A DNA stretch of 64,000 nt from NCBI RefSeq assembly GCF_006345805.1, contig NC_043004.1:81344001-81408000 (forward strand). Direction: 5' to 3'. Below the pieces are notes generated by a model. That model was not told the origin of the DNA. It made no database searches and worked only from the letters and a program-made list of their open reading frames with translations. Position numbers and translations under genes: made by a program. The number at the start of each line of letters is the position of its first letter. The first letter of the stretch is position 1. Origin of the DNA: Octopus sinensis (lineage: Eukaryota). Below are positions 13,200 through 64,000 of the stretch, in pieces.

Positions 13200-14070
13200 T
13201 AATTGTCCAGTTTTTTTCAAGATTTTTTGCCAATAGAGAAAGAACCGGTTTCTAACCTAGGTCCAAGGCTCCTTCACTGGAATTTCAACATCAACAACAG
13301 GATATTTTTGTATGTATGTATGTATGTATGTATGTATGCATGTATGTATGTGTGCAGATTTGTATGTTTTGCTTTATGTGTGTATTCTCATGCATATAGC
13401 TGCATATCTAGACATGCTCATATATATTTAAATGATAAACTTCTGGAAAGTTTTACAGATTCTTACAGTTCCAGTGATAGACTGGATCTGTAGTCTTTGA
13501 ATTAGCTTTCTCCTTTCTGGTTTTGAGAAGCCTAATTTCTCACGATTTGTATTTAGGCAGTGTGTTACATATCCCAGGGCTCCAGTATTTACAGGTATAA
13601 ACCCGAACTTGTAATCTGGATAGAGTAACTGCAGATTTCTCAATAGTTCAGTATAGGTGTTAACATCCGCTGGGCAGCTAATTTCCACAGATGTGCACAG
13701 TTCCTCTTCTCTGTACCAAATCATTATATCAGGTCTGTTGTGCTTACATTTTATTGAGGTCTTCGCTGGAACATTCCACCAGTACTCCTTTTTATTATGA
13801 GTGGCTATGGCTTCTACCATACTGTGGGTTCTTATTTCTTTGTTCTCGGGATTACCTTTCCGGCGGATTTCATTATAGAATGCCCTAGCTACAGCATCAT
13901 GTCTCATCGGTAGATAATACCCTGATGACATTTTTGGACAACTACTTATGATGTGGGTAATATCTTCGGTTTGAACTCCACAAAGTCTGCATCGGTTGTC
14001 ACATTTTACAGCTTTTCCCGCATTTCTGTCCCTTTTGAGCATCAGATACTTGGTTGATATTTCCTGTTCT
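13200..14070 (-). mobile_element. 5'-truncated R4/Dong-type non-LTR retrotransposon (zinc knuckle plus restriction-like endonuclease)
   Basis: ORF 13428-14042: CRLCG...HIISSC (CCHC), RHDAVA, RPDIMI..EISCP (PD-(D/E)xK type). The 3' UTR has an internal (CATA)n, and the element is flanked by (TATG)n. Confidence 0.85.
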
Positions 14071-25363: not shown

Positions 25364-25455
25364 CGCCCGCAGAGAGACTCGAACCCGCGATCTTCAGATT
25401 ACTTCTAATGTAGAACTATAAAGGTCTGATGTTCTACCGACTGATCTATGCGGGC
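25364..25455 (-). tRNA. tRNA-Lys(UUU)-like gene with a 19-nt intron (25400-25418) at the canonical 37/38 position; possibly a pseudogene
   Basis: Minus strand GCCCGCATAGATCAGTCGGTAGAACATCAGACC-TTT-A[tagttctacattagaagta]ATCTGAAGATCGCGGGTTCGAGTCTCTCTGCGGGCG (73+19 nt). Perfect acceptor stem GCCCGCA/TGCGGGC, anticodon stem TCAGA/TCTGA, A and B boxes present. One mismatch each in the D and T stems, and C at position 33. Confidence 0.8.
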
Positions 25456-28546: not shown

Positions 28547-28632
<86 letters not shown>

Positions 28633-28639
28633 GTTGTTA

Positions 28640-29762
28640 AAACATGTTGTAGTTGAAGGGGTAAAATCAAGCCCAGCCAAAGTCAGTAGTGGCGTTCCGC
28701 AAGGCACTGTGCTGGGCCCACTTCTTTTCATCATTTACATTAATGACATTAATGACATCATCAAGCACAGCAACATAAAAATCTTTGCAGATGACTCCAA
28801 GCTACAGAAGGTCATAAACGAGGCGAGTGACCGGACATGCCTTCAGTCAGATCTACTGGCTGTTATCCAATGGGCAGAAAAAACAATATGCTGCTGAACG
28901 AGGATAAATTTGAGCTAATCCACTTTGGAAAAGAGGATGCCCTGAAACTCCCATACCACCTTCCTTCAGGTGAAACTCTCGCGGCGTCCAACAACATCAG
29001 AGACTTGGGAGTAATTGTGGACAACAACGTAAGCTGGGCCACTCATATAAACACCAAAGTTGACATGGCCCACAGAATGTGTTCCTGGATTCTCAGAACT
29101 TTCCAGTCGAGAGATATCCACACCATTATCCTTCTCTTCTCCACTTTCCCGACCCCACCTTGAATACTGTTGTCCACTGTGGTCTCCCCACACAATACAA
29201 GGTATCATAAAAGTTGAAGCACACTCAAAGGGCAATCACAAAAAAGATAGATGGCATGACAGGCCTCGACTATTGGGGTCGGCTAGAAAAGCTAAAACTC
29301 TATTCTCTCCAACGTCGTCGTGAGCGCTACATCATCTGCATGATGTGGAAAATATTCCATCAGCATTGCCCAAATGATGTTGGCATCACCTTTAGGTACA
29401 TCCAAGACTTGGCGCCCGTGCCATCCGCCCAAAACAAAAAATCGCACTCTCATCTCATAACAACAATACGGCACAATTATTTCACCTCAATTGGCCCCGC
29501 TCTCTTTAACATTACACCAAAACACATTAAAACAGAAACTGACCCTATAGGGTTCAAGAAGTCTTTGGACAGATTCCTTCAAGAAATCCCGGATAAACCC
29601 CCTACACCCGGATATGTCTCTGTAAACAATAACTCTCTACTTGAGTGGGCCATAGTGCCCAAATTCTGACTTGAAAGACTTCACCAGGTGGTGCTATTAA
29701 GTTAGACATGGCCTGGGCCAATAATGGCCGAAACCTATCAAAGTATCAAAGTATCAAAGTAT
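28640..29762 (+). mobile_element. 5'-truncated CR1-group (CR1/L2/Daphne-like) LINE, frameshifted RT C-terminus
   Basis: [20 protein letters not shown]...IFADDSKL, DLGVIVD, RPHLEYCCPLWSPH, LYSLQRRRER across three frames; (TATCAAAG)n tail; inserted in (TA)n. Confidence 0.9.
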
Positions 29763-34619: not shown

Positions 34620-35345
34620 TGAACTACACAGAACAGGGGGAGACACGTGGCATGTAGAGTTGTTGAAGAGGTCACAGATCGTGTGACGAAAGACCAACTT
34701 CACATGTGCTTCCAAGAACCTTATCTATGTCCTAACCTGCTCAGATTGTGGCCACTATTATGTGGGCCAAACGAGCCTTACTTTGAGACGCAGAGTTGTG
34801 CTGCATAAAGAACAGATTCGTTTTCCTCAATACAGGCAGATAGCCCTGAGCGAACATATCGATAGATGCGCAAGAAATAAAATGCCGAATTTCCATATAT
34901 TTCCATTAGACCAATGCAAAGATTCAATCTTCTTACAAGAACGCCTAAACAAAACCTGTTCATATAAAAGTACAGATCACACCTTGATATACAAATTGGA
35001 CTACTTGATCCTTATACATTCCTATTTCAAGAATTATACTGAGGAGTTAGTTGTCCCCCTTGCCACCTATTGCCTCCCTTTGTCCACTCTCTAGACTCAT
35101 TCTTACTTTTCAAGTAACCAAAGTGGCAAGACTTCTTTTTCACAAGAAATGATTACTTCACAATAACCCTTCAAAAGCTAATTTAAATAGCGAAAACCGG
35201 TTAGATATCACGACATCTATAATATATATATATAAAATTTCTTTATAAAAAGATATTAAACTATGTGAAACGAAGGTATTTCTCTTCCACTTTTTATATA
35301 TAGCCACGTGGTGTTTACTGATTCTCCAGCATCTTTCCTCCTTTC
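34620..35345 (+). mobile_element. Penelope-like element 3' fragment: GIY-YIG endonuclease remnant plus 3' UTR
   Basis: Frame from 34687 reads [45 protein letters not shown]...LSEH (C..N.IY...C..C...YVGQT..R..H, the PLE GIY-YIG pattern). A stop lies just upstream; a degenerate hammerhead-like gcta/tagc-GAAAACCGGTT lies at about 35168-35205. Confidence 0.8.
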
Positions 35346-35585: not shown

Positions 35586-36623
35586 AAGGTTAATCCAAAC
35601 GGGAAAACAGAAAAAACAACAACACGTGGAACAATTACAGTATTATTATTATTAGGCGCTCAGGAAAATGGAAGAAGGAGGGTATGACGTTTCGAGCGGA
35701 GCTCTTCGTCGGAAACATAGGAGAAAGAAAGATCCCGAGACGGGAGGACAGAGGAAAAAAAATTGCAGGTAGTCTTCACGAGGTCACATACTAAAAAGAC
35801 GGAAGTGGTAAAAAAGGAGGAAAATGTTTTTTAAAAACAGGAGAGCTGAATCAAAGAGGGAATGGTAAAAAAGGTGTGCGAGATGACAAGGGTGTGTGTG
35901 TGAGTGTGTGTATGTGTGTGTATGGTGGACAATGGCTAGTAGCAAGCAGTAGTAGAATTAAAGGAGTGGTGTGGGGGTACCCTAGCAAGTCAGAAAAGCA
36001 GATCAGAAACAGGGAGGTATGTGTGTGTGCGTGTGTATGTATGTGTGAGTGTGTGCGTGTGCGTGCGTGTGTGTATGTGTGTGTGAGGCGAGATAAAAAA
36101 ACAAAAAATATGTATATGTTAGTGCGTGCAGGGCGAACAGATGACATAGCAAGTCTCAAGTGAGTGGTCAGTGGTAAAAAAAGGAGGAAGGAGGGAAGAA
36201 TGGAAGGAGGGAAAGGGTGGGGGCGTATGTAACGTGCCAGTGTGTGTGTTGAGTGGTAGTGTGTGTGTGTCCAGTGTGCGTAGTTGTGTGTATGGCAAGT
36301 AAATTTGAAGTGTGTGTAAGTGTAATGTATATATATATGCAAATGTGTGTGTGTGAGTGGGTGTGTGTATGTGTGTACAAAAAGGGGGGTTAAGGAAAAA
36401 AAACTGCAGCGGAGGGGGGGAGGAGGGACGGAAGATGGAAGAGTGGTCCCGCGGCGACAGGCGTGGGAGAACCCAAAGACACGCGCCGGCCCCAGATACG
36501 AACAGGAGATCTAGTCGGTACCCACGAGCGTGGTGCATGCATGCGTGTATGCGTGCGCGAACGTGCACAAGCGTGTATGTGCGCGCGCCTGCGAGTGTGT
36601 GTGTGTAAGTATGTATGTGTGTG

Positions 36624-42379: not shown

Positions 42380-43292
42380 GTTTTTTTATTAGCCACACAG
42401 GGCTGCACACAGATAGAACAAATTACAAAGTAGAGCTTTTCTTTTGAAGGTAAAAAAAAAGGGGGGGTGTTCGATCAAAAGGGATCGTAAAAGGAGAGAG
42501 AGAGGACAAAAGGGGGGGGTTAAAAAAGGGGGAGAGGAAAAAAATTGATCAATAGGGATCGTTATCACAGAAATGTCAATATGAAGTATAAAGGGGAGGA
42601 CAGGTGAGGTTTACCCGTGGAAAGAAAAGCCTACGGAAAAGACCACGGTAACCTCGGTCAATGAAGTCACATGTTATATTTCTTTCTTTTATTTTTTTTT
42701 TTTTGCAAATAAGCAACTCTCTGTATTAATTTTTATGGTTCATAGAATCATAGTCAAGGTGGCTACATTCACCCATCTTTTTTTAAAACATTCGCTAGAC
42801 AAAACTTGCCTCTCTACTCTCACTTTCCTTTTCAAGTGGTACTTGAAGAAGTTGATGAGAGATTGACCAGAGAGGAAAGTGTTTGTCTCTAATCCTTTCA
42901 GGCGCGTCCACCAGATACATTCTTTCGCCATAGCCACAAGTATGATAAAAATAGCTCTTCCTTCCCGTTTGAAGGAAGGAGGCGTGACGATATTAACGAT
43001 AGACTCGGCTGATAAACCGACACGTCCCACACGTGACAGCAGTCGTTCGACATAAGCCCACAGGTCGGAAATTGCTGGACACTGCACGATTGCGTGCAGA
43101 GCGGTTTCGTCGCTCTGCCCGCATCTCGGGCAGGTCGGCCCCGTGTTTCTCGAGCCATGCCTATAGAGCTTATCCCGAACGGATAGCGCTTCTCGGTAGC
43201 ACCGCCAGGCCAGGGATCTCTGGAAGTTGTCCATAGGTCCCGGGCCGAAAGTCGTTTGAAACAGGCGGGTCAGGTATTCCTCGTCGACGCCT
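42380..43292 (-). mobile_element. 5'-truncated L1/Tx1-type LINE (RT-associated zinc finger and 3' UTR)
   Basis: WRCYREALSVRDKL...CPRCGQSDETALHAIVQCP...IWWTR; AATAAA at the 3' end followed by (TATC)n. Confidence 0.8.
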
Positions 43293-43520
43293 AGGATAGA
43301 TAGGAGGAAGGAGGGGGAGCCGGGGAGGATGAGGAGGGGGAGCCGGGGAGGAGGAGGAGGAGGAAGAAGAATAGGAATGGGGGGTGGGGAGGAGGAGGAG
43401 GAGGAGGAGGAGGAGGAGGAGGAGGAGGAGGAGAAGGAGGAGAAAAAGAAGAAGAAGAAGAAGAAGAAGAAGAAGAAGAAGAAGAAAAAGAAGAAGGAGG
43501 AAGAGAAGAAGAAGAAGAAG

Positions 43521-43552
<32 letters not shown>

Positions 43553-44735
43553 TCTACTCTGCACTGGACTGGTACTTTATTCGATCGGCTCCAAAAGGAT
43601 GAAAAGCAAAACAGACCACGTTTAGATTTGAACTCAGAGAGGAGAGAACCAGAAGGGCCATACCACAACCTCTTGCGATAATGAAAACTGCTTGTTGGCG
43701 GATACAAAGCAAAAGCTAGATATATTAGAAATTGAACGTCGTGTCTAATGACTCACCTGTTTGCACCTGGATACCCTCGATCTGTCACATCAAAACTGAT
43801 CAGGTGTTAACAACAACAACGCTTTTATTTCCATTTATTTTTTGCAGCTTGTGCTTTGCAGAGAATCTTCACATTTTAAAGTCAAAGCTTCGGTAATCCT
43901 TTTTGAAGTATTGATTTCAAATTTTGCCACAAAGCCAGCAGTTTTAGGGGAGGAGTAAATCGATTGCATTGATCCCAGTGCTCAACTTGTATTTGTTTTA
44001 GTGACTCCGAAAAGTTGAAAGGCAAAGTCGACCTTAGCGGAATTTGAACTCAGAGCGTACATACGGACTAAAATGCTGCTAAGCATTTTTCCTTGCGTGC
44101 TAACGATTCTGATAGCTCGCAGCATTGTCCTTTTTGAGATATTAAACAGCATTTGCCTCCCTGTTGTAAACTCAAGAGGTATTTTATAGACCATGAAGCG
44201 GCGAGCTGGCAGAAACGTTAGCACGCCGGGCGAAATGCATAGCCGTATTTCGTCTGCTGTTACGTTCTGAGTTCAAATTTCGCCGAGGTCGACTTTGCCT
44301 TTCATCCTTTCGGGGTCGATAAATAAAGTACCAGTTACACACTGGAGTCGATATAATCGACTTGATCCGTTTGTCTGTCCTCTCTGTGTTTAGCCCGTTG
44401 TAGGTAGTAAAGAAAGAAACCATTTTTTTAATAGACATTGTATAGAAACAAGATTCTGTGGATCAATTTTTTGTAGATAATTTATAAAAGTGGAATTACA
44501 TCAATTATATAAGCATAAATTATTCTATCCACTGTCTCAGATTTTCCCAAGACTTGTTGCTATTGTTGTTGTGAACTACAATCAACTTTCATCAGTCGGA
44601 TGCGTTCCTGTCACAACCATCTCTCTTTCTGAACATATCCAATACGTATCCCTCTTTCTTTCTTTCCCTTTTTCTTTCTCTCTTCCTTCTTCCTTCCTGT
44701 CTTTTCCATTTTTTTTAAATTTTTATTTTTTGTAG

Positions 44736-53697: not shown

Positions 53698-54563
53698 TTG
53701 GGTCATCCCATAAATAATGCAGTTTTTTTCAGTTACATGAACAAAAAGTTGGAAGGGGACTTGCCTTGTCCTTATTCTTAGTGCAAGTTTTGAAGAGTGC
53801 AGTTCGATTTTAAAAGTTACTTTTTCAAAGCTATAATGGAAGTGACAAAGGAGAATTGCTTTACAAGTTCAATAAAGGCAACAACGCAATGGAAAGTGTG
53901 AGGAATATTAATGCAGTATATAGGGAACAGACAATAAGCATAAGCCAGTGTCAACGGTGGTTCCAGAAATTCCGAGCTGGAAACTACAGCCTAGAAGGCA
54001 AGCCACATCCTGGAAGAGCTGTAGAGCTCAACGAGGACATCATGCAAACCATGGGGGAACAACATGCCATCATAACTGTTGAGGAACTAGCAGAGAAGTT
54101 TGGATTTGGTAATTCAACTAGTCATTCAAGCCAGCACTAGAAGATAAACAACCATCTTTGGTTTCAAGACGAAAAGTGTTCGTCCATCAGGATAATGCTC
54201 AGCCACATACAGCAAGAATGACATTCCAAACGCTGGAGCAGTTTCAATGGGAAATGATGCCCCACCCACCATATTTGTCGGACATTTCCTCATCTGATTA
54301 TCATTTATTCTGTAATCTTTAAAATCATTCGGATGGAAAAAATATGAATTTTGTAGACGAGGTCAGAACAGTACTGGAGAAATACTTTTCATCACGGACA
54401 AGTAAATTTTGGAAGAGGGGCCTTGCAAATCTACCAGATAGATGGAAGAGCATTGTAGAAAATGAAGGAGAGTATATTTTTGATTAAAAAAGAACTTTGT
54501 TTATCTTAATTTTGAAAAATAAAAGAAGTATAGAAGAACCCCATTATTTATGGGATGACCCAA
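53698..54563 (+). mobile_element. Internally deleted mariner (DD34D-type) DNA transposon
   Basis: TIRs ttgggtcatcccataaataatg / cattatttatgggatgacccaa with TA target duplications (53696-97, 54564-65). Transposase remnants QRWFQKFRAGNYSLE..PGR (HTH) and HQDNAQPH...HPPYLSDISSSDYHLF. Confidence 0.92.
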
Positions 54564-57836: not shown

Positions 57837-58934
57837 TGTGTGTGAGTGTGTGTGAGTGTGTGTGTGAGTGTGTGTGTGTGTGTGTGTGTGAGTGTGTGTG
57901 TGAGTGTGTGTGAGTGTGTGTGTGTGAGTGTGAGTGTGTGTGTGTGTGTGAGTGTGAGTGTGTGTGTGTGTGTGTGTGTTAAGGTACATACTCTTTGCCT
58001 CAAACGATAATGTTAGCATTTGCAACTTTATATCAACAGTTATGACTGTGAGAAATAAAAACTTAACCCTAGAATTTAATAATAGATTCTTAGAAAACTA
58101 TTACACCATTAAAAACAAAAGTTTTGCAGAACACTGGACAGGAAAAGACATGGAGGGGGGGAAACGCAACACAGGGTAATAATATTTATTATCTTAAACG
58201 ATTTCCTTTCAGCCGTTTTGAGTGAATTCACAGAAAGGAGAACAAACGAAAACTAAACTACAATTTAGAGAAGGAGAGCAAAGAGGACGAAGATGATGGG
58301 GAAATGGAGGGAGAAAACGGAGACGGTGACGAACGGTTTAATCAGGGGAAACAACTCTTGCACAATGATTTTTTTTCCCCCCTTCACCATCCAATTTTTT
58401 TGATCTTGCAAATTAAGTACAGGACGTGTCTGTGTAATTCAATTTATTTAGAATCTAGATTTTTCTGGTTCCAGTGCCACTAAGTGGCGTCTTTGGCGAG
58501 TCCTTTCTACTATAGCCTCAGAATTTCGCGTGTGTAGGGCAGCCAGCTGTGGAAACACTGCCAGATCAGAGTGGAGCCTGGTGCAGCTTCCTGGCTTCCC
58601 AGACCCCGGTCGAACCGTCCAACCCATGATAGCATGGAAAACGGACGTTAAACGATGATGATATATATTTTTTCTTTCCCCCCCCCTCCAGTTTATTTCT
58701 GTGTTCCTTTCTGTCGAAGAGCATAGGTTCTTTTGCTCAACACACACACATGCATGCACCCCAAGAATTTAGCATACTCATCATCTTCCTTTAACGTCTA
58801 TTCTCCATGCTGGTGTGGATGCAAAATAGAGATTGATAGTTAAGTACAAGACTTCAAGATGCAAGTACAAGGGAAGCGTGGCCCAGCATGGCCATATCCC
58901 AATGTTTGACACCGTTAACGGAACAACAACTGAC

Positions 58935-59044
58935 CTGGTGTACATATCGTATTGTGGATTGAGAGAGTCTTTGGACATTTCCATCAGTCTCATAGCTTCA
59001 TTCACATCTTCCTTTTCAACAACATCTGCAAGTCGAAGGCGAGC
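58935..59044 (-). CDS. MCM7: MCM7 exon (110 nt): [36 protein letters not shown](R)
   Basis: ttcttccag acceptor and gtcagt donor. Near-identical to MCM7 [25 protein letters not shown]; phases join both flanking exons. Confidence 0.97.
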
Positions 59045-59181
59045 CTGGAAGAAATAAAATGCAAGATTAAACAAATTCATCAAGATGCTATTAACGAGGA
59101 TTAATATTGGCGTTACTTGGGATATATTTCCAAAACCAAGGCAATACCAGATTCTAAATTGAATTTACCATTAATAGTCAA

Positions 59182-59510
59182 TCATCATCATCATCATTTA
59201 ACGTCCGCTTTCCATGCTAGCATGGGTTGGACGGTTCAACTGGGGTCTGGGGAGCCCGAAGGCTGCACCAGGCCAGTCAGATCTGGCAGTGTTTCTACAG
59301 CTGGATGCCCTTCCTAACGCCAACCACTCCGAGAGTGTAGTGGGTGATTTTATGTGCCACCGACACAGGTGCCAGACGAGGCTGGCGAACGGCCACGCTC
59401 GGATGGTGTTTTTTATGTGCCACTGACACAGGTGCCAGACGAGGCTGGCAGACGGCCACGCTCGGATGGTGTTTTTATGTGCCACCGACACAGGTGCCAG
59501 ATGAGGCTGG
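59182..59510 (-). mobile_element. SINE/RTE-tail repeat ending in (GAT)n (GGAAGGGCATCCAGCTGTAGAAA family)
   Basis: Shared gagtggttggcgttaggaagggcatccagctgtagaaac...ccaacccatgctagcatggaaagcggacgttaaa(tga)n. Copies at about 9030-9090, 50805-51010, 51235-52170, 52690-53090, 54735-54970, 55630-56165, 58540-58660, 61027-61315, 61790-62050 and 63778-63960. Confidence 0.8.
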
Positions 59511-59732
59511 TTAGAAATATTGAATTTCTAAATATCTCAAAGAGACATGAGCGGTGGTGGAGTGATAGAGTGGTTGTATACTGTCAACTTAACGTGACAG
59601 TCCCGTAAAAGGAATCACACCACCGCTATTTAGCCCTAGGAAGCATCGACACTTCCTGTCGGTTTTGACACGTTTCCTGTGTCCTTATATTTGCGATGGG
59701 GAGACAAGCACCCCCACTAGCTAGGGCCCGCA

Positions 59733-59778
59733 CCTAGAGACATGCATGCTTCTGAATCTTGCTCGTCATCAGTCTAGG
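59733..59778 (-). ncRNA. Degenerate hammerhead motif in an MCM7 intron (sense strand)
   Basis: Minus strand cctaga-CTGATGA-cgagcaagattca-GAAGC-atgcat-GTC-tctagg. Six-bp helix I; GAAA is mutated to GAAG. Confidence 0.55.
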
Positions 59779-60407
59779 GTAGCAAGGCCTGCTAGTTGAG
59801 ATGTTTGTCAAGGCAACAAATCACAAGTGTTGTGTGGGAATCGGCAAATCAAAGAATAGACCCATTGTTTTCTTTTCATGTCGGTGGTTAAAGTAGGATT
59901 TGCATCTGGCTTCGTAAAACTGTCACCAGCAACGACTACCCCAAAATAGAGTTGCTGCCTGAAAGGTGCAAAGGTGTTATCCTTCAGGACTAGAAGGAAA
60001 TCACCACACAGTGCATGCCCCCATAATTCTACTAATATTGCAGCCAACAACCATTTTTGAGTTTGTCTTAGAGAGAATGAAATCTTTACCGTTTCCAACT
60101 TTTAACAGACATCAACCCTACAACGCTAACATTACCAATATGTATTTAAATAAAATTTATTTATTAGACTTTTTCACCTTATTTAAGAGATGGAGAGTCT
60201 GACAAATTAAATTAACGTAAATCTTGGATAACTGGGTTTTTTTACCTTTTTGTCAAATAAAGCCTCATGGTCAAGTGAATTTAGTACAAAGAAAAAGGTC
60301 ACAAACCCATCATGTGTGTGTGTGTGTGTGTGTGTGTATCCTATTCATGAGGAATCATTTACATTATTTACATTTGACGGATATTTGTGCTCATCTTGTT
60401 TGTTGTT

Positions 60408-60453
60408 AACACAACGTTTCGGCTGATATACCCTCCAGCCTTCATCAGGTGTC
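60408..60453 (-). ncRNA. Minimal hammerhead motif, left arm of palindrome (sense to the MCM7 pre-mRNA)
   Basis: Minus strand gacac-CTGATGA-a-ggctg-gagggtatat-cagcc-GAAAC-GTT-gtgtt. Confidence 0.7.
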
Positions 60454-60520
60454 TTGAGGAAATTTTGAACCTGGGTTCTCATTCCGAAGGCATGAGAACC
60501 CAGGTTTGAAATTTCCCCAA

Positions 60521-60566
60521 GACACCTGATGAAGGCTGGAGGGTATATCAGCCGAAACGTTGTGTT
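60521..60566 (+). ncRNA. Minimal hammerhead motif, right arm of palindrome
   Basis: gacac-CTGATGA-a-ggctg...cagcc-GAAAC-GTT-gtgtt; palindromic AACGTT helix III. Confidence 0.7.
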
Positions 60567-60721
60567 AACAACAAACAAGATGAGCACAAATATCCGTCAA
60601 ATGTAAATAATGTAAACTATTTACATAGAAACAAGTGAAATCCACCAAGAGAATTATGGTGAATCAATACAGGTTTGATAACAATAAGGAACTGAAGTTC
60701 CATGGTAGTGAAAATACTAAC

Positions 60722-60890
60722 CAAAGCCGTGGAAAGTCGGAGGATAGCAAGCAGTGTCCTAGCAGAGGTGAAAGTTGTGTCTTTACTGTTACGAGATTCT
60801 TTGCGCATTTCAACATAAGCTCCAGTAATATAATCAGAAAGATTTTCAGGAATAACTGGTTGTTTTGATTGGCATAAGGAAATATAACGC
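60722..60890 (-). CDS. MCM7: MCM7 exon (169 nt): [56 protein letters not shown]
   Basis: ttattttcag acceptor and gttagt donor. [16 protein letters not shown] is the MCM7 AAA+ lid/sensor-2 region. Confidence 0.97.
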
Positions 60891-62584
60891 CTGAAAATAA
60901 AAGAGGGAAATTAAAACTCAGTATTTTCTTATAAAAATGAAAGTAGGAGGAAAAGAAATATGGTTTAAAAATATGTAAACTAATACTGCAGGTAAGTGGA
61001 GGTTTTCTAGATTATGGAGGATATTCATCATCATCATTTAACGTCCGTTTTTCATGCTAGCATGGTTTGGCTGGGGTCTGTGAAGCCAGGAGGCTGCACC
61101 AGGCTCCAGTTCGATCTGGCAGTGTTTTTACAGCTGGATGCCCTTCCTAATGCCAACCACTCAGTGAGTGTAGTGCATGCTTTTTACGTGCCACTGGCAC
61201 AGGTGCCAGGGTGGGCTGGCAACGACCACGATCAGTTGGTGGTTTTTACGTGCCACCGGCACGGAAGCCAGCCAAGGTGGTGCTGGCATCAGCCACATAC
61301 GGATGGTGCTTCTTAAAGGTAATATTTGAGGATAACTACGAGGGTTTTAGGTTAGTCCCACAGTGTGGCACCTTGGTTAAATGTCTTTTTCTTTAACATT
61401 TGGCCAATTAGAGAGCCTTGCAAGTGGATCTGGTTGACAGAAACTTAATGTATACACATATATATAAGTAAATATACTTTATACATGTTGAGTGTGTGTG
61501 TTATAATTGAGAACAAACAGTAAGAGTTTCAAATGTCGAAGCACAGAGCTACAATGCATTCTCGTCAGCTATTAACATCACTGAAAAACCGTTGAACAAA
61601 AGGGAAAAAAATACATAAGAAATACAAGCAACTATATTCTCACATTTGAAACTGAGTTCTATAATGGCAGCCTTTTACTTTTTGTCCTAAATTATGACAT
61701 ATATAAATAATTCTCTATTTCTCTAATATCTTTTTTTGTTACTTTATATTATTTTATGTGTGGCACATAAAACGCGCCAGTTGTGCATGGTTGATGTCAG
61801 TGCAGCCTGACTGGCTCCCATGCCGGTGGCATGTAAAAACCACCATTCGAGCGTGATCAATGCCAGTGCCACCTGACTGGCCCCCATGCTGGTGGCACGT
61901 AAAAAGCCCTCGCTACACACTCAGAGTGGTTGGCATTAGGAAGGGCATCCAGCTGTAGAAATCTTGCCAGATCAGATTGGAGCCTGGTACAGTCAAACCA
62001 TCCAACCCATGCCAGCATGGATAGCAGACGTTAAACAATGATGATGGTGATGATATATATATACACAATACACACCACACATACATCATAAATATATGAT
62101 CATAGAAGTCATCCAACATGGCAGATTTCCTGTAGTCAATCCTCTTGCTTCCAAGCAAGGTAATAATATATTCCCATGGTCAGATACGTTTCTGCAGAAT
62201 ATCTGAAATGAATAACACTGCTTGTGACAGATAATTTTAGAATTATCCCTTGATATCAAGACAAACACACACATTTATGACAGGATTCTTTCAGTTTCCA
62301 TCTGACAAATCCAATAAGGTTTCAGGTCAGCCCTAGGCCTATAGCAGTAGCCATGCTGTGGGATTGAACTCAAAACTACATGGTTGGGAAGCAAACTTCT
62401 TAACCACACAACCACGACAGTGCCTAATACTAATGTGAACACAAAATACTTTTAATTCAGAAAATTTAAAGCAAATGGAGTTTGCTGTTTTAAAACTATT
62501 CCCCTCGGCATAAAATCTGAAGCAAAATAAAATAAAATGAAGTCGAAACTAAACATAGATGTTTAAGAGAGAAAAATTATCAAC

Positions 62585-62668
62585 CTCATTAATTTCATGT
62601 CGAGTGGAGTGAACTGTGCTGGAGGTTGGGTGTTATGTTGGTGAACGTATGTTATGTGTTGGGCCAAC
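62585..62668 (-). CDS. MCM7: MCM7 internal exon (84 nt, phase 2-2): (R)[27 protein letters not shown](R)
   Basis: Minus strand ttttgcag|G TTG GCC CAA...ATG AG|gttg. The peptide matches the MCM7 segment [25 protein letters not shown], and the frame continues into the next exon. Confidence 0.95.
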
Positions 62669-62879
62669 CTGCAAAATAACAAAAGACAATATAATCAAAA
62701 TAATTATCGTACTCAATCAACATTCAGAAATATAGAAGAAACTAACGAGACAAAAACTAGAATCTTACAAAAGACACGTTGTTAAGACAAACCTCAAACC
62801 TATTCCGAGATGCACAAAAGTTATCTGCCCCTAGATAATGATTACCTCCCCTTTGTTACTGTATGTTGAAATCTATAAA

Positions 62880-63470
62880 GCCTTTGAAATAACGAAGAAT
62901 TTAATACAATAACTGTCATTAGCAAGCTGGTGTTTCGAAAATGAATTAAAATGAAAATTTGATGGAAGGTTTTAATTTAGATCACTTTATTCTTTTTATT
63001 ACCATATTTTCGTTGAAATACACAGCTTCTGTTTTAATTAATTTTAAAAATAATTTAAAACAACTGTCATTATTAATCTGGGGTTTGGAATGCAAAGAGA
63101 GAAAGTTTTGATAGAAGTTTCAATTCCGATCACTTAAAAACAGGAGGCTAGCATACAGAACTAGAGGTGGTCTCAAGCGGTTTGGTATCAAAAGATTTAA
63201 ATACAGCAAGGAATTTGATGAGGGAGATTTAGCTGTTGACCACATAGAAGCTCTCTCACTGACTAACACACTCCATGGGTGAAAAACACTTTTGTTATAT
63301 TTCTGTTGAAATACACTATTTCCATTTCAATTTATTTTGAAAATAACGAACAATTTATTAAAATAACTTCTCTTTATTAAGCTGGTGTTCAGCAATTAAA
63401 TTTACAAATAGGATTTAATTTAGATCCCAGTAACCTTTTTGTTACATTTCTATTAAAATACACTGCATTA
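62880..63470. repeat. Degenerate tandem repeat / MITE-like remnant in an MCM7 intron
   Basis: Recurrent tttgaaaataacgaa..aataact..attaagctggtgtt..ttttaatttagatcac..gttgaaatacac blocks, about 3 copies. Confidence 0.55.
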
Positions 63471-63768
63471 CTTACATTTGATGGATATTTGTCCTCATCT
63501 TGTTTGTTAACACATTTCAGCTGATATACTCTCCAGCCTTCATCAGGTGTCTTTGGGAAATTTCGAACCTAGGTTCTCATTCCTAAGGTATTTTTCGATA
63601 TTATTGTTATTATTATTATTATTATTTCAGGTCACTGTTTGGAATCGAACTCGGAATCTTGGGGTTATTAGCCCACGCTCTTAACCACTATGCCATAAGC
63701 CTGTAAGCACAGTGGTTAAGAACGTGGGCTACTAACCCCAAGATTCTGAGTTCGATTCCAGGCAGTGA
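63470..63768 (-). mobile_element. tRNA-headed SINE-like element with a hammerhead-containing tail and an inverted duplicate of its head
   Basis: Minus strand: A box TGGCATAGTGG, B box GAGTTCGATTCC, (TAA)n linker, then the same sequence as the 60358-60616 arm (degenerate hammerhead at 63509-63551). The head (63632-63694) is repeated inverted at 63707-63768. Confidence 0.7.
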
Positions 63769-64000
63769 ATCACAATCATCATCATCGTTTAACGTCCGTT
63801 CTCCATGCTAGCATGGGTTGGACGGTTCGACCGGGGATCTGGGAAGCCAGAAGGCTGCACCAGGCTCCAGTCTTATCTGGCAATGTTTCAACAGCTGGAT
63901 GCCCTTCCTAACGCCAACCACTCCGTGAGTGTAGTGGGTGCTTTTTACGTGCCACCTGCAATAATAATCAACAACAACATCAGCATCATCATTGAAAAAT

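Follow-up and report, generated by a model that had tools for sequence, protein, structure and literature searches.

The question raised by this locus is whether a near-perfect palindrome that carries the same hammerhead motif on both strands, and lies within an intron of the replication gene MCM7, is a device for silencing a ribozyme in that gene or has a more general origin. The window analysed was a 64,000-nt stretch of the Octopus sinensis genome (NC_043004.1, positions 81,344,001 to 81,408,000, forward strand); coordinates below are those of the window, and published systems are described from the available parts of the papers cited. The palindrome quite probably represents two 5'-truncated copies of a dispersed repeat that inserted together, head to head. 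A Penelope-like element (PLE) likely mobilised this repeat in trans, and the hammerheads are likely inert passengers; the hairpin of the palindrome is probably a by-product of transposition and not a gene-specific switch.

The inverted repeat occupied nt 60353–60485 and 60489–60621, with arms 95% complementary and a loop of 3 nt (Table 1). Within nt 60358–60616 the arms were 128 nt each (60358–60485/60489–60616) and had 4 mismatches, every one within 32 nt of the centre, two of which represented one CpG decayed on opposite strands; the outer 99 nt matched perfectly. An identical hammerhead motif, of 46 nt, was present on each strand, as an earlier note, made from the letters alone, had described for these near-perfect arms. 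The predicted MFE of the palindrome as RNA was -228.6 kcal/mol (z -31.8), which was equalled by 0 of 100 shuffles, and its centre was situated at a short natural quasi-palindrome of the repeat body (positions about 11–23). The placement in an MCM7 intron given in the same note also held, since the exon preceding the intron encoded the MCM lid, three exons (62586–62669, 60722–60891, and from 59044, minus strand) joined in frame, and 105 nt separated the donor GT at 60721 from the palindrome edge at 60616. More exons with MCM motifs were located just outside the window.

Table 1. Coordinates of the palindrome, its hammerheads, the host gene parts and the second insertion in the window
Feature	Position (nt)	Strand	Remarks
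Left arm	60347..60485	-	5'-truncated repeat body; reads as sense in the MCM7 pre-mRNA; 3' side enters partial tail, body position 157 of 177
Right arm	60489..60614	+	5'-truncated repeat body; antisense in the pre-mRNA, transcribed first; 3' side stops at position 144, the inner of the two 3' ends of the family, tail absent
Centre	60483..60493	.	3-nt loop joining two truncated copies
Minimal type I hammerhead	60521..60566	+	46 nt; predicted cut after GUU at 60561
Identical minimal hammerhead	60408..60453	-	pre-mRNA strand; predicted cut after 60413
MCM7 exon (AAA lid)	60722..60891	-	Pfam MCM_lid, E 4.5e-13; donor GT at 60721
MCM7 host intron	59045..60721	-	1,677 nt; following exon starts at 59044
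Second head-to-head insertion, same family	63466..64000 (to about 64165)	.	preceding MCM7 intron, longer
Antisense body of second insertion	63466-63595		part of the preceding-intron pair
tRNA-like heads of second insertion	63628-63704	-
tRNA-like heads of second insertion	63707-63768	+

The second pair, in the preceding MCM7 intron, was split by another repeat, and its tailed right body ended about 165 nt past the window. An abundant repeat that starts with CAT runs and has internal 62–66-nt tandem units was also observed in and near the MCM7 introns, with five copies in both orientations (58536–58818, 59178–59510, 61018–61315, 61760–62058 and 63769–63960) that give further long intronic duplexes, one pair being 667 nt apart. 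Elsewhere in the window, ORF fragments were found at 13428–14069 (-), 28628–29669 (+), 42740–43576 (-) and 53814–54140 (+), which, judging by their motifs, may be remnants of LINE and mariner elements.

The hammerhead motif consisted of a 5-bp helix I, CUGAUGA, one extra A, a helix II of 5–6 bp, GAAA, and a palindromic ACGU. The core residues C3-U4-G5-A6-N7-G8-A9 and G12-A13-A14 were present; helix II was closed by G10.1-C11.1, preceded by a single unpaired base, the frame having a predicted energy of -11.2 kcal/mol, and the NUH triplet was GUU. Helix III was absent, and the ACGU palindrome would permit dimer formation through an intermolecular duplex predicted at -5.7 kcal/mol. Judged by these features, the motif is assigned to the minimal type I form described for PLEs (PMC4209133), in which helix II is often 7–8 bp. 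The canonical three-helix structure was lacking, and no Rfam hammerhead family was matched at the window locus, which is to be expected of a motif with no helix III. At about nt 35685–35712 (-), as well as in loci L134 and L148, a different hammerhead-like motif of the minimal kind was seen; its helix II is short, and it apparently belongs to another dispersed family.

The minimal PLE-type motif is reported to be built for dimers, with no detectable in vitro cleavage by the single motif and little by dimers (PMC4209133, available part), and the hammerhead of the lizard element PAc was cleaved only with protein and was dispensable for in vitro insertion (PMC11167929, available part). Since helix III is lacking and a single motif of this kind remained uncleaved in the former study, a sense copy on its own, with the antisense arm removed, would still likely show no activity. 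The earlier note had proposed that the antisense arm, being transcribed first, sequesters the sense hammerhead in a duplex and silences it. The order of transcription was right, and burial agreed with the predicted folds, the pre-mRNA hairpin being favoured over the sense-hammerhead fold by 82.5 kcal/mol; the silencing itself is doubtful, as there is likely little to silence at this locus even though the duplex would bury the motif. Nor does the antisense-first order point to a design for silencing, since it is true of any head-to-head pair on either strand and arises family-wide at insertion, the high-copy mobile element having been overlooked in that proposal.

Each arm of the window palindrome was found to be a 5'-truncated copy of a dispersed repeat of about 320 nt, the full unit of which comprised an 83-nt head, an (AAT)n linker, a 177-nt hammerhead body and an optional tail of about 30 nt. 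A search with one arm as the query gave 41 scored matches with 93% to 100% identity; the exact 46-nt core occurred at 761 places in the genome, and an intact-core pattern recovered 3,512 copies as compared to 0 for the reversed-pattern control. Because only 5 of 37 unselected partner arms retained the core pattern (the exact core was retained in 0/37), a rough extrapolation suggests some 26,000 hammerhead-bearing arms in the genome; none was present in 364 kb of loci chosen for other reasons. The copies, including their cores, decay neutrally.

For a survey of arrangement, 57 loci were sampled in order of position (30 + 27, three duplicate loci dropped), together with a best-hit set of 28 loci from which the window's own two were dropped. 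Many copies were solo, and tandem direct copies were rare (2 of 57 position-sampled loci), so that the family lacks the tandem hammerhead units of retrozymes. Being dispersed, non-coding, within 100–600 nt and of high copy number, it resembles a SINE; judged by the 3' ends of the bodies, which fell at two fixed internal sites (144–150 and 172–177), it does not have the LINE-derived end with a simple-repeat or poly(A) tail. It is not an autonomous PLE, the unit being non-coding and thus without an ORF for reverse transcriptase plus GIY-YIG endonuclease. In three loci (L002, L031 and L042), one and the same repeat, unrelated to the family and terminated by an (AAT)n run, preceded the hammerhead body, which suggests either preferred insertion into the tail of another element or a chimeric subfamily.

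The head possessed A and B boxes 45 nt apart and lacked TTTT; among the 57 position-sampled loci, 28 had a head upstream of the body at a distance of no more than 350 nt. Its best alignments with the tRNAs of this genome had z values of 5–8 against shuffles, as the best of 27, with no one isotype singled out. No tRNA match was given by Rfam for the solo head; ARAGORN called a tRNA in 0/7 loci by default and, when relaxed, in 3/7 loci with differing isotypes, and gave nothing for the majority head sequence. Matches of the paired head to miRNA families in Rfam were dismissed, as they were under their cut-offs and reflect the hairpin only. Apart from this family, a tRNA match at nt 25364–25455 (-) contained a 22-nt insert in the anticodon loop and is possibly an intron-containing tRNA.

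Head-to-head pairs with two hammerheads were a habit of the family, being observed in 9/30 and 9/27 position-ordered loci (18/57) and in 13/28 best hits, while tail-to-tail pairs were found in 0 of 85 loci; an upstream inverted piece was present in 30/57 position-sampled loci. Flanks shared a string of at least 8 nt in 18/31 pairs versus 13/930 mismatched-flank controls, and with such a target duplication around the two arms each pair represents one insertion. The tail was attached to exactly one arm in 27/32 pairs, the other 5 being ambiguous and none having both or neither; in a second set of 20 loci selected by their centres, both bodies were present in 11, of which 10 had a one-sided tail and one had both. 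These marks correspond to those of PLE insertions, for which an inverted 5'-truncated copy, a 30–40-bp tail at just one of the ends, a palindromic sequence where the inverted copies join and duplications of 8–10 bp are described (PMC8557442 and PMC3846280, in the parts available). Dual minimal hammerheads on opposite strands, 100–700 bp apart, are likewise reported for Schistosoma (PMC4209133), and a one-sided tail can be accounted for by reverse transcription of the PAc type, which has two internal start sites and an ATT preference (PMC11167929).

Whether the arm is doubled at each insertion, or the transposing unit is the whole 350–600-bp palindrome, in the manner of a MITE or a palindromic master, was judged from the centres and the arms. 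One stereotyped full-length centre was common to 220 loci, a single target duplication surrounds the pair, and non-CpG variants were shared by both arms in 5 cases against about 1 expected, all of which would suit transposition of a whole palindrome. Such a unit is nevertheless improbable, since the ends were not terminal inverted repeats of fixed length, the centres of truncated pairs varied widely (gap -5 to 794), the arms differed at 11 variant sites, many copies were solo, and the side of the tail was not tied to centre orientation (7 versus 3, plus one with both tails, among 11 two-armed pairs). The last observation also led us to reject strict snap-back from a fixed first strand as the sole model, because centre orientation does not set which arm is tailed. 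For the window pair itself, an artefact of assembly or polishing was considered, whether for the whole palindrome or just for how perfectly its outer arms match; an assembly fold-back was among the outcomes that, according to the earlier note, would undo its reading. The centre was spanned by no contig among those listed from public runs, which is uninformative either way, a masked GT run adjoins the left junction, and the perfect outer 99 nt are atypical. Yet a fold-back is unlikely because the mirror ends at the repeat's own two 3' ends (157 and 144, typical of the family) and the flanking intron was not copied, and because the four inner differences include the CpG decayed on opposite strands; other short-loop pairs exist in the genome with an arm divergence of 5–19%. 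Furthermore, the right-hand junction recurred in contigs from public runs with three organism labels, one from another study (X5, organism C), which extended 33 letters into the repeat; contigs X1 and X3 (organisms A and B) extended only 24 letters, under the 31-letter bar. No empty allele was seen among the joints listed. An artefact is therefore very improbable.

The window arms were the most identical of about 40 pairs, with 1/99 differences in the compared body segment versus 2–21, for which P was about 0.003 (post hoc) at the family rate of 7.9% (102/1,290 in other pairs). The locus had no clear target duplication (a 5-nt candidate) and only a partial tail (157/144). Such identity is not predicted by plain neutral decay unless the insertion is young or homogenised; general homogenisation of short-loop pairs was looked for and not seen. 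The cause could be youth or local conversion between the arms, both of which are favoured, or else polishing or selection. Selection would mean a co-opted copy, in which the duplex near the donor regulates splicing or turnover of MCM7 via ADAR binding or a shut hammerhead. Besides the arm identity, both window cores are exact as compared to 0/37 unselected arms, the right junction is common to three organism labels, and hyper-editing in octopus as well as editing of palindromic repeats and of a lizard Penelope is documented (PMC5625713, available part). However, equivalent pairs number in the hundreds to thousands, and the one in the adjacent MCM7 intron is interrupted by another repeat; 3 pairs with two exact cores were present among the first 100 exact-core places listed; the monomeric minimal hammerhead is reported inactive in vitro (PMC4209133); and youth or arm-to-arm conversion accounts for the identity with selection unneeded. 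Co-option is therefore decidedly improbable. ADAR editing of the window duplex is plausible as the default expectation for an octopus intronic hairpin (PMC5625713). The alternative suggestion of the earlier note, that the duplex would be a Dicer substrate, found no support, and neither did an effect on splicing. An editing imprint in genomic copies, scored on the sense strand as A>G versus T>C, was not significant for the body (P 0.06), and for head copies P was 0.19 with the opposite direction.

Insertion by a PLE in trans, the preferred reading, could proceed as follows. RNA polymerase III would transcribe a full copy from the A and B boxes of the head and, with no T4 terminator, would read through into the flank; the ragged 3' end would be immaterial because PLE reverse transcription starts internally. 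The PLE protein, with its reverse transcriptase and GIY-YIG endonuclease, would bind the hammerhead-tail region and cut both strands of AT-rich DNA, and cDNA synthesis would begin at two internal sites of the RNA, separated by about 30 nt, so that one target end may be joined at the tail site and the other at the inner site. The junction of the arms would lie at a microhomology or a hairpin, for which the head offers its 5'-terminal hairpin and the body, at the window locus, its quasi-palindrome; the arms would be joined by annealing of two cDNAs or by cDNA snap-back as described for R2 (PMC11371274, available part). The observations on these two routes point both ways, the arms sharing variants beyond chance and yet differing at 11 such sites. 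Cleaved RNA as the template was considered and rejected, as 5' ends did not pile up at the cut site (2/141 matches). Once transcribed as part of the MCM7 pre-mRNA, the two arms would pair into a duplex of 128 bp, which is likely subject to hyper-editing by ADAR and to removal together with the intron.

The genome was rich in PLE copies of the GIY-YIG type, and in some of these there were ORFs of close to 780 aa as well as hammerhead-like motifs of their own. From 5,029 GIY-YIG candidates, 150 were scored and 80 loci, of about eight families, were compared; none of these 80 was an autonomous PLE with the body or tail of the repeat. Family and protein searches with GIY-YIG sequences in this genome plus 20 regions gave other hammerhead-like motifs and no shared body or tail, and the partner alignment score exceeded the shuffle maximum in 2/13 regions. 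Among the PLEs themselves, a truncated fragment of a GIY-YIG endonuclease was located at nt 34687–35091 (+) of the window (Pfam E 1.6e-5) and resembled the L151/L079 family. Two abundant families (L068, L077, L080–L090; and L122–L150) carried a U3-A8 variant of the hammerhead core 0.5–1.2 kb past the ORF, and one of them was young, with several open frames of at least 780 aa.

Classical SINEs have a 3' end in common with a LINE and a simple-repeat terminus, and are understood as LINE parasites. Octopus tRNA-derived SINEs, with the names OK and OR1, were reportedly described by Ohshima and Okada in 1994. Compared by description, the present family resembles the latter in its tRNA-like head, body and high copy number, and identity with a named family is possible; it differs from classical SINEs in ending at two fixed internal sites.

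With PLEs, as presented in the available parts of PMC4209133, PMC3846280, PMC8557442 and PMC11167929, the family shares the minimal hammerhead of the pLTR, including the extra base before helix II and the palindromic 15.2–16.2, the inverted 5'-truncated copy placed head to head, the tail of about 30 nt on one end, the junction palindrome, target duplications of 8–13 nt, and AT-rich and (AAT)n surroundings. Unlike PLEs, it has no ORF, the place of the pLTR promoter is taken at the 5' side by the tRNA-like head and its A and B boxes, and tandem direct copies are rare. Sm-alpha and Sj-alpha of Schistosoma (PMC2770079 and PMC6765202, available parts) are also non-coding and of high copy number, with a hammerhead and tRNA-related or Pol III features, but these are tandem, their ribozyme frees monomers and the promoter is 3' in the cleaved unit, whereas the octopus family is dispersed, has its head first, is mostly solo or inverted and bears the minimal hammerhead. 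The non-LTR retrozymes of animals, for which an origin from PLEs is proposed, are similarly non-autonomous units of about 300 nt with type I hammerheads (PMC7229834 and bioRxiv 10.64898/2026.07.22.740005, available parts); their definition includes circular RNA and an arrangement in tandem units, a tandem habit that the octopus family lacks, and no tRNA head is mentioned in those parts. Chlamys derivatives such as MRC1 (PMC8557442, available part) are short non-coding elements moved by PLE enzymes as well, but are algal, form head-to-tail arrays, have similarity at the 3' end to a known partner, and belong to a clade described as having no canonical hammerheads. The palindromic Harbinger repeats of Xenopus, which are ADAR substrates (PMC5625713, available part), resemble the octopus pairs in self-folding across a short loop with no distant partner, and differ in being DNA transposons with no ribozyme and with editing demonstrated.

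In the literature compared, with repeat databases and supplements outside the comparison, no description was found of a tRNA-headed element with PLE insertion marks; the available parts of PMC13282606, PMC8967140, PMC4758252, PMC10886601, PMC2770079, PMC6765202, PMC7229834 and bioRxiv 10.64898/2026.07.22.740005 contain no such element. Repeat libraries in supplements may already include the family under some label. The nearest precedents are Sm-alpha and the retrozymes, both tandem. The window locus is ordinary, and novelty is probable at the level of the family, which, bearing a tRNA-like head, may represent a type of SINE not described before. A broader proposal is put forward tentatively, as somewhat short of an even chance: that this is the first tRNA-headed SINE parasitising PLEs and not LINEs, combining a Pol III head with a PLE hammerhead-tail module; that each arm begins at one start site, as a dimeric protein with two RNAs would produce; and that its thousands of double-hammerhead hairpins of 130–300 bp form part of the octopus excess of dsRNA and hyper-editing.

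If true, the union of a Pol III head with a PLE module would give SINEs a new class of partner. How PLEs make inverted structures is stated to be open in PMC8557442 (available part); with this family, whose template is 320 nt and whose scored outcomes, namely two 3' ends, one per arm, number in the thousands, PLE inversion would become testable in an in vitro system of the PAc type. Octopus is also unusually rich in long near-perfect dsRNA, the source of which is unnamed in the available part of PMC5625713, and this family would be a concrete candidate for part of it.
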